Positions 6,022 to 8,015 of a DNA stretch of 30,683 bases are shown here, piece by piece (positions within the stretch are counted from its first letter, which is position 1; each line of letters begins with the position of its first letter). The notes below the pieces were generated by a model. That model had not been told where the DNA came from. It saw nothing but the letters and a program-made list of their open reading frames with translations, and made no database searches. This stretch comes from a virus, in the UHGV virus genome UHGV-0109493. One strand, given 5' to 3'. The translations under genes were made by a program, and so were the position numbers.

Positions 6022-6429
6022 CTATTTTATAGATTTGTTTTTACGAGCTTTGAGCATTTCTTCGAAAAGTCTATTGAAATTCTCAACTCTAGCGCGCATT
6101 TCAGACAGCAATGCTTCCTGCTCGGAGGATGGTAGAGCATCGAATAATTCAATCAATTCTTTGTGGCTGGGAGTTAGCTCGTTTTCCACATGAAGCTCTT
6201 GTGCTGGCAATGGTGTTTTGTCTTCGTCACCAAACATTAGCCACGTAGGTGAGCACTTCAGAGCATCCGCTAAAGCAAACAGTCGCTTCCCTACAGGTTG
6301 GGTTTCATCTCTTTCCCATTGAGAAATGGTGACGTGAGCAACCCCAGCGAGACGTGCGACTTCTCGTTGTGTCAGGCGTAATTCTTTTCGTCTTGCCAGA
6401 GCTCGCTGGCCTAGTGTTTTTGTATCCAT
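6022..6429 (-). CDS. dicA: DicA-like HTH (XRE-family) prophage repressor
   Basis: 135-aa product with helix-turn-helix LTQREVARLAGVAHVTISQWERDETQP and C-terminal MRARVENFNRLFEEMLKAR, closely resembling recalled Qin DicA. Divergent from a Cro-like gene. Confidence 0.85.
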   Translation of the reverse strand: MDTKTLGQRALARRKELRLTQREVARLAGVAHVTISQWERDETQPVGKRLFALADALKCSPTWLMFGDEDKTPLPAQELHVENELTPSHKELIELFDALPSSEQEALLSEMRARVENFNRLFEEMLKARKNKSIK

Positions 6430-6508
6430 AGTTAGGTAATTCTAATTTTTCTTGACTTAGGTATCCCGCGCACATTAGTGTTAGGAATATCTAACAAAGG
6501 GGGCTTTG
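6430..6508. promoter_or_regulatory. Divergent promoter and operator region of the immunity switch
   Basis: 79-bp AT-rich gap between divergent dicA-like and dicC-like genes. Holds two TTAG-N6-CTAA sites (6432-6445, 6481-6494) and a TTGACT -35-like hexamer at 6452-6457. Confidence 0.5.
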
Positions 6509-6736
6509 ATGTTTAAAGTTGATGCAATTATTTTTTTTGGTAGCAAGACAAAGCTTGCCAGTGCCGCAGGAGTAAGGCTGGCAAGTATTGCTGCATGGGG
6601 GGAGCTGGTCCCAGAAGGTCGCGCGATGCGTCTGCAAGAGGCATCTGGCGGAGAGCTTCAGTACGATCCCAAGGTTTATGACGAATATCGTAAGGCAAAG
6701 CGGGCGGGTAAGGGTATTCATGAAAATCAGGCATGA
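6509..6736 (+). CDS. dicC: DicC-like Cro-type regulator
   Basis: 75-aa product MFKVDAIIFFGSKTKLASAAGVRLASIAAWGELVPEGRAMRLQEASGGELQYDPKVYDEY resembling recalled DicC. AAAGGGGG precedes the ATG at 6509. Confidence 0.8.
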   Translation: MFKVDAIIFFGSKTKLASAAGVRLASIAAWGELVPEGRAMRLQEASGGELQYDPKVYDEYRKAKRAGKGIHENQA

Positions 6737-7142
6737 GCACATTGAATCAGTGTTGTTAGCTCTGGCTGCCGAAAAAGGTCAGGCGTGGGTTGCCAACGCA
6801 ATTACTGAAGAATATTTGCGCCAGGGGGAGAGTGAATTAGCCCTGGCGCCAGGCAAGGACTGGAACAATCAGCAAAACATCTATCACCGCTGGTTAAAAG
6901 GTGAAACAAAGGCGCAAAGGGAAAAAATCCAGAAGTTGATTCCTGCAATCCTGGCAATTCTTCCGCGCGAACTGCGACACCGCCTCAGCGTTTTTGACAC
7001 CCTGGAACGTCGCGCATTACTGGCGGCTCAGGAAGCGCTGAATACGGCAATTGATGCGCATGATGATGCAGTCCAGGCCGTTTACCGGAAAGCGCATTTC
7101 AGCCGCGGCGGATCATCCGGCGATTCTGTCGTAGTGCATTGA
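6720..7142 (+). CDS. ydaT: YdaT-like protein (Rac-type, toxin-like in reports)
   Basis: 140-aa product MKIRHEHIESVLLALAAEKGQAWVANAITEEYLRQGE matches recalled Rac YdaT. Its ATG at 6720 overlaps the end of the dicC-like gene. Confidence 0.8.
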   Translation: MKIRHEHIESVLLALAAEKGQAWVANAITEEYLRQGESELALAPGKDWNNQQNIYHRWLKGETKAQREKIQKLIPAILAILPRELRHRLSVFDTLERRALLAAQEALNTAIDAHDDAVQAVYRKAHFSRGGSSGDSVVVH

Positions 7143-7187
7143 TTGAAATTAATCGTGCCGGAGCGTTTTGTTCGGTATCAGTTAAAT

Positions 7188-7206
7188 GTAACGCTGCGAG
7201 CGTTAC
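7188..7206. repeat. 19-bp palindrome copy 1 (gtaacgctgcgagcgttac)
   Basis: Read directly from the sequence; consensus GTAACGC-N5-GCGTTAC, just upstream of the ATG at 7221. Confidence 0.8.
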
Positions 7207-7220
7207 AAGGTGAAAACAAT

Positions 7221-8009
7221 ATGGCTTCAAACTGGATAAAGCTCGAAGTTATTACGCCGGATAAACCGGAAATATTCAGGATTGCTGAGATTCTTAATAT
7301 TGATCCAGATGCCGCATTAGGGAAGGTCATTCGATTCTGGGCATGGGCGGATCAACAAATGATTGATGGTAACGCAGAGTGTAACGCTCGAGGCGTTACA
7401 AAAAGTGCAATAGACCGTATCACTTTTATGGCTGGTTTTGCTGATGCGTTAATTCAGGTTGGATGGCTGGTCGAAAGTGATGGAGTGCTTTCACTACCAA
7501 ACTTTGAGCGTCATAACGGAAAAAGCTCGAAAAAACGGGCGGTTACAAACGAGAGAGTTACAAAAATACGCGAACTGAAGCGAAAAGGTAACGCTGCCAG
7601 CGTTACACAAACGGATCAAAAAGCGTTACCAGAGGAAGAGGAAGAGGAAGATATAAATACTGATCTCCCCCTAAATCCCCCTCGGCAAAAACGAGCGTCT
7701 AAAAAATTCGAGCCGGAGGCCATTGCTCTGCCCGACTGGTTGCCAGAAACACTCTGGAATGAGTGGGTCCAGTTCAGGCAGGCATTGCGAAAACCGATTC
7801 GAACGGAGCAGGGCGCTAACGGGGCGATACGGGAACTGGAAAAATTCCGCCAGCAGGGTTTTACCCCTGAGCAGGTGATTCGACACAGCATCGCCAATGA
7901 ATACCAGGGCTTGTTCGCGCCGAAAAGTGTTCGGCCTGAGACGTTGCTCCGACAGGTTAACACCGTCTCGTTGCCGGACAGTGCGATCCCGCCAGGCTTC
8001 AGGGGGTAA
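7221..8009 (+). CDS. ydaU: YdaU-like phage replication protein
   Basis: Product from MASNWIKLEVITPDKPEIFRIAEILNIDPDAALGKVIRFWAWADQQ resembles recalled Rac YdaU; it sits immediately before a DnaC-like loader. An upstream TTG at 7143 is an alternative start, so the N-terminus is uncertain. Confidence 0.7.
   Translation: MASNWIKLEVITPDKPEIFRIAEILNIDPDAALGKVIRFWAWADQQMIDGNAECNARGVTKSAIDRITFMAGFADALIQVGWLVESDGVLSLPNFERHNGKSSKKRAVTNERVTKIRELKRKGNAASVTQTDQKALPEEEEEEDINTDLPLNPPRQKRASKKFEPEAIALPDWLPETLWNEWVQFRQALRKPIRTEQGANGAIRELEKFRQQGFTPEQVIRHSIANEYQGLFAPKSVRPETLLRQVNTVSLPDSAIPPGFRG
7381..7399. repeat. 19-bp palindrome copy 2 (gtaacgctcgaggcgttac)
   Basis: Read directly; lies inside the ydaU-like coding region. 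An extra GTAACGC half-site sits at 7370-7376. Confidence 0.8.
7588..7606. repeat. 19-bp palindrome copy 3 (gtaacgctgccagcgttac)
   Basis: Read directly; inside the ydaU-like coding region. Two gttacaaa direct repeats sit at 7542-7564. Confidence 0.8.
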
Positions 8010-8015
8010 CTGACC

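Follow-up and report, generated by a model that had tools for sequence, protein, structure and literature searches.

The origin of phage λ lies in the middle of gene O, which codes for the phage initiator, and the two iterons nearest to the adjoining tract, together with that tract, suffice for unwinding (PMC7466680). Four 19-bp imperfect inverted-repeat iterons are annotated in this gene at +348 to +432, followed by the purine-rich A+T tract aaaagaaaaaagaaaaga, and recombination joints are annotated just to its right. The Rac prophage has been reported to carry an active origin, oriJ (PMC3945230). An origin embedded in its own initiator gene is a classical kind of system. In this work, we have used computational approaches to analyse a 30,683-bp stretch of viral DNA (UHGV virus genome UHGV-0109493, called here the window), which is a Rac-like E. 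coli prophage, 99.8% identical to a deposited 'Escherichia phage Rac' fragment. In and just upstream of its replication initiator gene, a 19-bp palindrome, GTAACGC-N5-GCGTTAC, occurs three times. We propose, with a probability of roughly 0.65, that these palindromes and the half-sites that accompany them are bound by the N-terminal domain (N-domain) of the initiator and form the origin of this Rac-like prophage inside the initiator gene, as it occurs in λ.

The pattern GTAACGCNNNNNGCGTTAC has three exact matches in the window (sites 1 to 3, Table 1), spaced by 193 and 207 bp, and none elsewhere even when two mismatches are allowed. In dinucleotide-preserving shuffles of the window the mean was 0.04 copies, and none of 100 shuffles reached three. 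An earlier sequence-only reading of this DNA had reported the three copies and proposed a scan of the whole genome for others; its coordinates and spacings were exact. The arms of site 1 lengthen to 8–9 bp, at 7187-7207. The half-site GCGTTAC is present ten times on the two strands of the window, against 2.9 expected and a number that none of 100 shuffles reached, and eight of the ten fall within about 440 bp, at 7188-7629. The remaining two, at 9241-9247 and 15909-15915, are isolated, with neither a partner nor a lattice neighbour, and they correspond roughly to the number given by chance (2.9 per window). The extra half-site described in the sequence-only reading exists, although at 7369-7375 and not at 7370-7376, and the lone half-site at 7623-7629 had been missed. 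The gttacaaa repeats reported between 7542 and 7564 are there, as copies of GTTACAAA at 7542-7549 and 7557-7564, the second of which overlaps the weak half-site GAGTTAC at gene offset +334. An exact GCGTTAC lies at this offset in L014, L115, L117, L124, L140 and L141, and of the two GTTACAAA copies only the second coincides with an exact GCGTTAC in several other enterobacterial lineages.

With an alignment of the N-domain as query, 74 loci were found among species-representative genomes and over 537 in IMG/VR; our homologue set consists of 59 non-redundant lineages with less than 85% amino-acid identity. The genomes include those of Serratia, Pantoea, Pectobacterium, Pseudomonas and relatives, Burkholderiales, Planctomycetota, Verrucomicrobiota including Akkermansia, Ignavibacteria and Thermoanaerobaculia, and the homologues share 34–66% amino-acid identity. 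In most of the 59 lineages the palindrome lies between +136 and +160 of the gene and again between +331 and +412, with a free spacer. Site 2, at the first of these positions, is present in nearly all homologues, and at least six of the seven arm pairs of site 3 are retained in 49 of the 59 lineages. When each locus was searched for its own half-site, the density was 8.1 per kb in the interval from -120 to +460, compared with 0.116 per kb in about 250 kb of flanking DNA, where we saw no further repeat cluster. The comparison with related phages that had been suggested from the sequence finds the sites at the same gene offsets in most of the set, with synonymous codons fixed. In phages about 68% identical to the window both in-gene palindromes keep exact arms with free spacers, and a 36-bp block, AGTTACCAGAGGAAGAGGAAGAGGAAGATATAAATA, is nearly invariant, the homology stopping directly after it. 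Because the upstream palindrome (at -21 to -69) is limited to the enterobacterial and a few verrucomicrobial homologues, we regard site 1 as a lineage-specific accessory site. The half-site at 7369-7375 is polymorphic (AAC/AAT) in close E. coli and Shigella relatives, where it is mostly GTAATGC, and exact in distant enterobacterial lineages.

The half-sites are arranged on a lattice of about one helical turn. Between neighbours in the same orientation the spacing is 11 bp (24 times) or 12 bp (27 times), and within palindromic pairs it is 12 bp every time (71 times); the longer gaps are multiples of these, of 22–24 and 33–35 bp, with a recurrent spacing of 33 bp. The arrays appear to gain or lose steps of 12 bp (four codons), and one lineage (L113/P0036) has an insertion of 16 codons with an extra palindrome. 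The last half-site on the right is joined to a purine tract, with the consensus GCGTTAC-C-W-AGAGAAGAGAAGAG, and this junction is kept across phyla; in enterobacteria the tract takes the form AGAGGAAGAGGAAGAGGAAGA and a short A+T block follows. A purine run of at least 15 nt occupies the tract position in 39 of the 59 lineages, and in 41 the run at this position exceeds every other one in the locus of about 5 kb. Among the phages that are otherwise about 68% identical, the tract is nearly invariant. In the window, the resulting core (7588-7659) comprises a palindrome, a degenerate unit, the lone half-site, the purine run and TATAAATA.

Table 1. Coordinates of the repeat elements and of the genes around them in the window.
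Feature	Position	Strand	Sequence or match	Remarks
Site 1	7188..7206		palindrome GTAACGC-TGCGA-GCGTTAC, exact match	15 bp 5' of the initiator start codon
Extra half-site	7369..7375		GTAACGC	12 bp left of site 2, on the 12-bp lattice
Site 2	7381..7399		palindrome GTAACGC-TCGAG-GCGTTAC, exact match	codes for the N-domain loop between helices 29-48 and 61-68
Weak half-site	7555..7561	+	GAGTTAC	gene offset +334, 33 bp left of site 3
Site 3	7588..7606		palindrome GTAACGC-TGCCA-GCGTTAC, exact match	in the disordered interdomain linker; proposed as the core site of the origin
Lone half-site	7623..7629	+	GCGTTAC	adjoins the purine tract
Purine tract, 21 nt	7631..7651	+	AGAGGAAGAGGAAGAGGAAGA	proposed to serve in unwinding or in single-strand binding
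A+T-rich end of the element; the mosaic joint (7648-7659) overlaps it	7652..7659		TATAAATA	local GC minimum of 0.375 at 7620-7659
DicA-like repressor	6022-6429	-
P22-Cro-like protein	6506-6736	+
YdaT/CII-like protein	6720-7142	+
Replication initiator, 262 amino acids	7221..8009	+	phrog_2509, E = 2.8e-89
DnaC-like helicase loader (YdaV-like)	8016..8762	+	PF01695 IstB_IS21, E = 1.8e-19; phrog_50, E = 4e-84

Our results show that these sites are tied to the initiator gene family and that they co-vary with the initiator protein. All the half-sites of a genome, the lone ones included, switch together: seven lineages have GCGTGAC throughout, L044 has GCGCAAC and L038 has GCGTAAC. Such concerted switches favour a sequence-reading protein and disfavour independent hairpins. 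Residue 113 of the initiator is V in 44 of the 45 GTAAC-type lineages and K or Q in all seven of the GTCAC type, while L044 and L038 have M; T109 also differs between the GTAAC-type and GTCAC-type groups. When the site-2 loop is masked, a neighbour-joining tree scatters the GTCAC lineages over three or more places, so the change in the protein recurs with the change in the DNA. The initiator gene is the only family present in all 59 lineages. Moreover, a scan of 2.9 million viral contigs (IMG/VR) for the composite element as DNA only returned 58 contigs; the N-domain is coded immediately upstream of the element in 56 of them, and the other two contigs end 16–24 nt upstream of it. That the palindromes and lone half-sites are the initiator's own binding sites is more probable than the origin role itself, and within the protein the strongest candidate for reading the DNA is residue 113, which belongs to the basic helix 101-122. 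At site 2 of the GTCAC-type lineages L037, L046, L063, L069, L070 and L072 an Asn is replaced by His (AAC to CAC), and here the half-site switch rewrites a residue of the very protein presumed to bind the half-site. This Asn/His residue was also considered as the sole determinant of specificity; in a second test T109 and V113 were better candidates, and we keep it as a minor possibility.

The comparison with λ O, which the sequence-only reading had drawn from iterons lying inside the initiator gene, is supported by the layout of the locus. Both systems have 19-bp dyad sites in the gene of their own initiator, in the linker between an N-domain that binds (here, would bind) the origin and a partner-binding C-terminal domain (C-domain). 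The gene offset is nearly equal: here the site-3 array spans +367 to +408, then comes the purine tract (+410 to +430), and the mosaic joint is located at 7648-7659. In both, a purine-rich and A+T-richer tract and a recombination or mosaic joint adjoin the sites, a helicase-loading partner is coded by the next gene, and each added site adds residues to the protein; the tract of this family resembles that of λ more in its strand asymmetry than in its A+T content. As expected of a lambdoid arrangement, the sites co-vary with the N-domain while the C-domain and the partner are exchangeable, the N-domain being joined to C-domains of the DnaT type or of other types, next to genes for DnaC-like or DnaB-like proteins. 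However, the proteins and the sites of the two systems have no sequence relation: no homology to λ O was found, and the 'O-like' phrog_678 matches only amino acids 93-236 of the initiator. In λ there are four tandem 19-mers, whereas here there is one full palindrome with oriented lone half-sites on the 11–12-bp lattice. The locus also has, unlike λ, clusters farther upstream, at distances of about 200 and 400 bp, one of which falls in a loop of the folded domain; its tract is (GAGGAA)n or (GAGAA)n, in contrast to the A-rich tract of λ; and its site sequence is kept across bacterial phyla.

From this architecture we infer how the origin could work. One N-domain would bind each 7-bp half-site GCGTTAC, and the 11–12-bp lattice would place the bound proteins on one face of the DNA. 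The core array (7588-7629) stops right at the purine tract and TATAAATA (7631-7659), where the duplex would open, and the C-domain of the initiator would then recruit the DnaC-like loader (8016-8762) and the host DnaB. Site 2 with its extra half-site (7369-7399) and site 1 (7188-7206), which lie some 200 and 400 bp left of the core, could be auxiliary, raising the local concentration of initiator or looping to the core, and site 1, which stands beside the ribosome-binding site, could also serve in autoregulation.

Several observations weigh against the origin reading. In about five of the 59 lineages, which are the most diverged, no array can be recognised, and the protein–DNA covariation comes from an unbootstrapped tree and few independent switches. 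The purine tract is merely moderately A+T-rich (about 37–40% GC), so its role as an unwinding element is a guess. The three clusters are separated by about 200 bp and do not form a tight iteron block such as that of λ, and a minimal origin leaves unexplained the near-universal site 2, which is within the region coding for a folded domain. Finally, dimer-bound palindromes are also typical of the operators through which plasmid Rep proteins repress their own synthesis. This last point belongs to the main rival explanation, in which the sites bind the initiator for autoregulation only, as operators or roadblocks, and the origin lies elsewhere. The general behaviour of plasmid Rep proteins, which autorepress via inverted repeats bound by dimers, speaks for it, as do the position of site 1 directly before the ribosome-binding site and the spread of the clusters over the 5' half of the gene, where they are not packed like iterons. 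Nevertheless, the universal parts of the array are inside the gene, at +150 and +360, and not at a promoter, and a promoter scan found no sigma-70-like promoter in 6300-8200. In addition, the fusion of the last half-site to a purine tract and an A+T block would be needless for an operator, the position of the array matches that of the λ origin and the mosaic joint, and the locus flanks showed no other repeat cluster. We consider autoregulation alone to be distinctly unlikely, although the two roles are not exclusive.

More improbable is an explanation in which the palindromes are not double-stranded binding sites but form hairpins, either in mRNA or in single-stranded DNA. Such hairpins would influence the stability of the mRNA, make translation pause, or provide a signal for single-strand initiation or for the assembly of a primosome. 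The palindromes fold as stems of 7–9 bp, with z values of the local folds between -2.6 and -2.8 against shuffles, the changes in their arms are compensatory, and some homologues have a DnaT-like domain. This stability does not discriminate between the readings, although the hairpins are stable. What does discriminate is that the sequence itself, beyond the pairing, is kept across phyla; that lone half-sites, which have no partner to pair with, are equally conserved, lie on the lattice and switch with the palindromes; and that all copies in a genome change identically while residue 113 co-varies with base 3. An intrinsic terminator or a regulatory RNA hairpin does not fit either, since the changes are concerted over all copies and extend to the unpaired lone half-sites. 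In the terminator scan, site 3 on the minus strand was the sole terminator-like call at a palindrome, and the coding strand has no T-run. On the minus strand (7606-7588) this site and its adjoining T-run read GTAACGCTGGCAGCGTTAC CTTTTCGCTT, which may halt antisense transcription into the origin or may be incidental. HUH-type nick sites were rejected as unlikely, the loops not being conserved, and so were recombinase core sites, there being no co-occurring recombinase.

The sequence-only reading had offered either a replication protein or a repressor as the binder. Our analysis favours the former and rejects the latter, because the sites accompany the initiator gene in 59 of 59 lineages, the DicA-like repressor in only 20, and YdaT and Cro in 11 each. 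The other neighbours counted were a DnaB-like helicase (13 lineages) and a DnaC-like protein (8). Binding by the DicA-like repressor, the Cro-like protein, the YdaT/CII-like protein or a host factor has in its favour that these regulators are encoded just upstream. However, no half-site was found by the window scan in the repressor-cro intergenic region, and the homologues of Uetakevirus phages, Planctomycetes, Akkermansia and others keep the sites with other neighbours or with none of this kind. A host factor of a single specificity that acts across phyla and switches with residue 113 of a phage protein is implausible, and we give this whole group of binders very little credence, even less than the hairpins.

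The sites are under selection at the level of the DNA, as had been proposed from the sequence, but not for the reason given there, which was that the encoded peptides are not conserved. Site 1 is upstream of the start codon, and sites 2 and 3, in the same frame, both encode x-N-A-x-x-V-T (CNARGVT and GNAASVT). The DNA-level constraint follows instead from the fixation of synonymous codons, the covariation between codons, the use of three reading frames and the concerted switches of the half-sites. At site 2, 46 of the 55 Val codons are GTT, where the background in the same genes is 35%, while the Thr codon that follows is free (ACA 29, ACC 13, ACG 6 and ACT 5). The residue before this Val is S, G, C or R, always with an NGC codon, and that before the Asn is G, C or S, always with NGT. 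Asn-AAC is paired with Val-GTT 45 times and His-CAC with Val-GTG six times, so that a synonymous change of Val tracks a non-synonymous change of Asn to His 12 bp away. Site 3 lies in frame 1 in 35 lineages, in frame 0 in eight and in frame 2 in six, and the lone half-site beside the purine tract encodes A-L-P in some lineages and S-V-T in others. According to an AlphaFold2 (AF2) model, site 2 codes for a loop (amino acids 49-60) and the site-3 array (7588-7629) for amino acids 123-137, within a disordered linker, places where the protein may tolerate residues dictated by the DNA. That the sites have no function as DNA and reflect chance or a conserved peptide N-A-x-x-V-T can be dismissed: sites 2 and 3 do share frame and peptide pattern, and G50 and N51 hardly vary when the proteins are aligned, but the fixed GTT, the synonymous Val that tracks Asn-to-His, the NGT and NGC codons that explain the varying residues, the three frames of site 3, the non-coding site 1 and a chance expectation of 0.04 all speak against it. 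The conserved N-A-x-x-V-T residues of this initiator family are probably by-products of the selection on DNA, and this case calls for caution when conservation is read from protein alignments.

The start of the initiator gene is the ATG at 7221 and not the TTG at 7143, as indicated by the conserved start MA[SG]xWIK and by a ribosome-binding site 8 nt upstream, AAGGTGA, which the non-coding site 1 immediately precedes. In the AF2 model the N-domain (amino acids 1-122) is winged-helix-like and has the long basic helix 101-122, the linker (123-161) is disordered, and the C-domain is a ydaU-type helical bundle. Structure comparison of the N-domain gave the winged-helix fold class only, with no relative, and the N-terminal 137 amino acids have no sequence match in Pfam, NCBIfam or PDB. 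For the whole protein there was no Pfam match at E <= 1 other than a chance-level DUF6760 (E = 0.15); Phage_rep_O was absent. The name 'ydaU-like' given to the gene in the sequence-only reading suits its C-terminal part. It does not suit the N-terminal half, since DUF1376 is absent from the initiator of the window, whereas YdaU of E. coli K-12 matches PF07120 with E = 2.7e-26. The gene is indeed a mosaic. From 7648 on, it shows 86% DNA identity to K-12 ydaU (the C-terminal 40% to half, approximately), while 7232-7659 has no K-12 counterpart and is 67–70% identical to genes of Uetakevirus phages and of one Klebsiella phage; the joint is at 7648-7659, where the K-12 homology begins (7648) and the Uetakevirus homology ends (7659). 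This initiator variant is found in 679 of 5,426 complete E. coli genomes, about one in eight.

The C-terminal module opens with a C-tract, GATCTCCCCCTAAATCCCCC (elsewhere CCCCCCTAACCCCCCAAGGGGG), at 7662-7683, which encodes PPLNPP(K/R)GG-like peptides. This motif is common to initiators with different N-domains, and it is also present in L006 (2506-2535) and in many related loci; in some of them its C-runs oppose a G-run, and pairing is possible. The last residues of the initiator (amino acids 244-262, 7950-8009) weakly resemble the C-terminal tail of the E. coli primosomal protein DnaT (NF002770, E = 0.0014-0.0038, which falls far short of the curated cut-off). YdaU of K-12 gives the same match, which hints at a shared partner-binding tail.

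The Rac prophage of K-12 has the same gene order (repressor, cro-like gene, ydaT, initiator and the DnaC-like ydaV), and differs from the window in the DUF1376 N-domain of its YdaU, which is unrelated to that described here, and in the lack of GCGTTAC half-sites in ydaU. At the same gene offset, that gene has repeats of its own, ATGTTCAAACA, of which there are five to six copies in direct and inverted orientation, and an A+T-rich stretch follows them. The cluster is located at 2357-2463 of L006 (offset +352 to +458), with five direct copies spaced by 33, 33 and 12 bp, plus inverted copies. These ATGTTCAAACA repeats are candidates for the iterons of oriJ.

Other replication systems show more distant similarities. 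In the bacterial oriC, DnaA boxes are followed by DnaA-trios, that is, double-strand sites and then a one-strand repeat tract of short period where opening starts. The likeness to our locus is purely architectural: the protein here is unrelated to DnaA and has no AAA+ domain, and the period of the tract is 5–6 nt, not 3. The Rep proteins of iteron plasmids (RepE, RepA, π and TrfA) share with this initiator, as we picture it, a winged-helix-type domain for origin binding, sites about one helical turn apart beside an unwinding element, and the binding of dimers to inverted-repeat versions of the sites; Rep has also been described to bind a single strand of this element (PMC4081077).

When plasmids were searched with the N-domain, only two 'plasmids' were found, both of them whole circles of phage size, and there was no small plasmid that would prove autonomy. 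One of the two, from Pusillimonas sp. T7-7 (L221, NC_015459.1), is the complete 41-kb genome of a temperate siphophage, with integrase, capsid, tail and lysis genes. An initiator with this N-domain and a loader are its sole replication genes, and the record could represent a phage-plasmid or else a prophage that had been excised and was assembled as a circle.

While the embedding of the origin is classical, the initiator domain, the 7-bp word, the layout of lattice and purine tract, and the conservation across phyla appear to be undescribed in the literature searched. Publications on oriJ, ydaU, DnaT with iterons and the phages epsilon15, phiV10 and TL-2011b contained no description of this initiator or of its sites, a search for GCGTTAC with replication origins returned primer and vector papers only, and the paper on phage ZX5 does not discuss replication.

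What would these sites mean for the phages that carry them? A wider proposal, which we regard as tentative and rather unlikely, is that a single origin-plus-initiator cassette, made of a nearly constant GCGTTAC word and the (GAGAA)n tract, has been kept in one gene across at least five bacterial phyla as a self-contained replicon module of very broad host range, its specificity being recoded by one base per half-site plus residue 113. If this were true, it would represent a natural and readable code of protein–DNA recognition, and it would provide a portable origin for the poorly tractable Akkermansia and Planctomycetes. If the proposal of an origin inside the initiator gene is correct, the origin of a widespread class of temperate phages would be defined, with predictions about its specificity (GTAAC with Val113, GTCAC with Lys or Gln113), and these phages would offer a clean case of a DNA element and a protein evolving on shared nucleotides.

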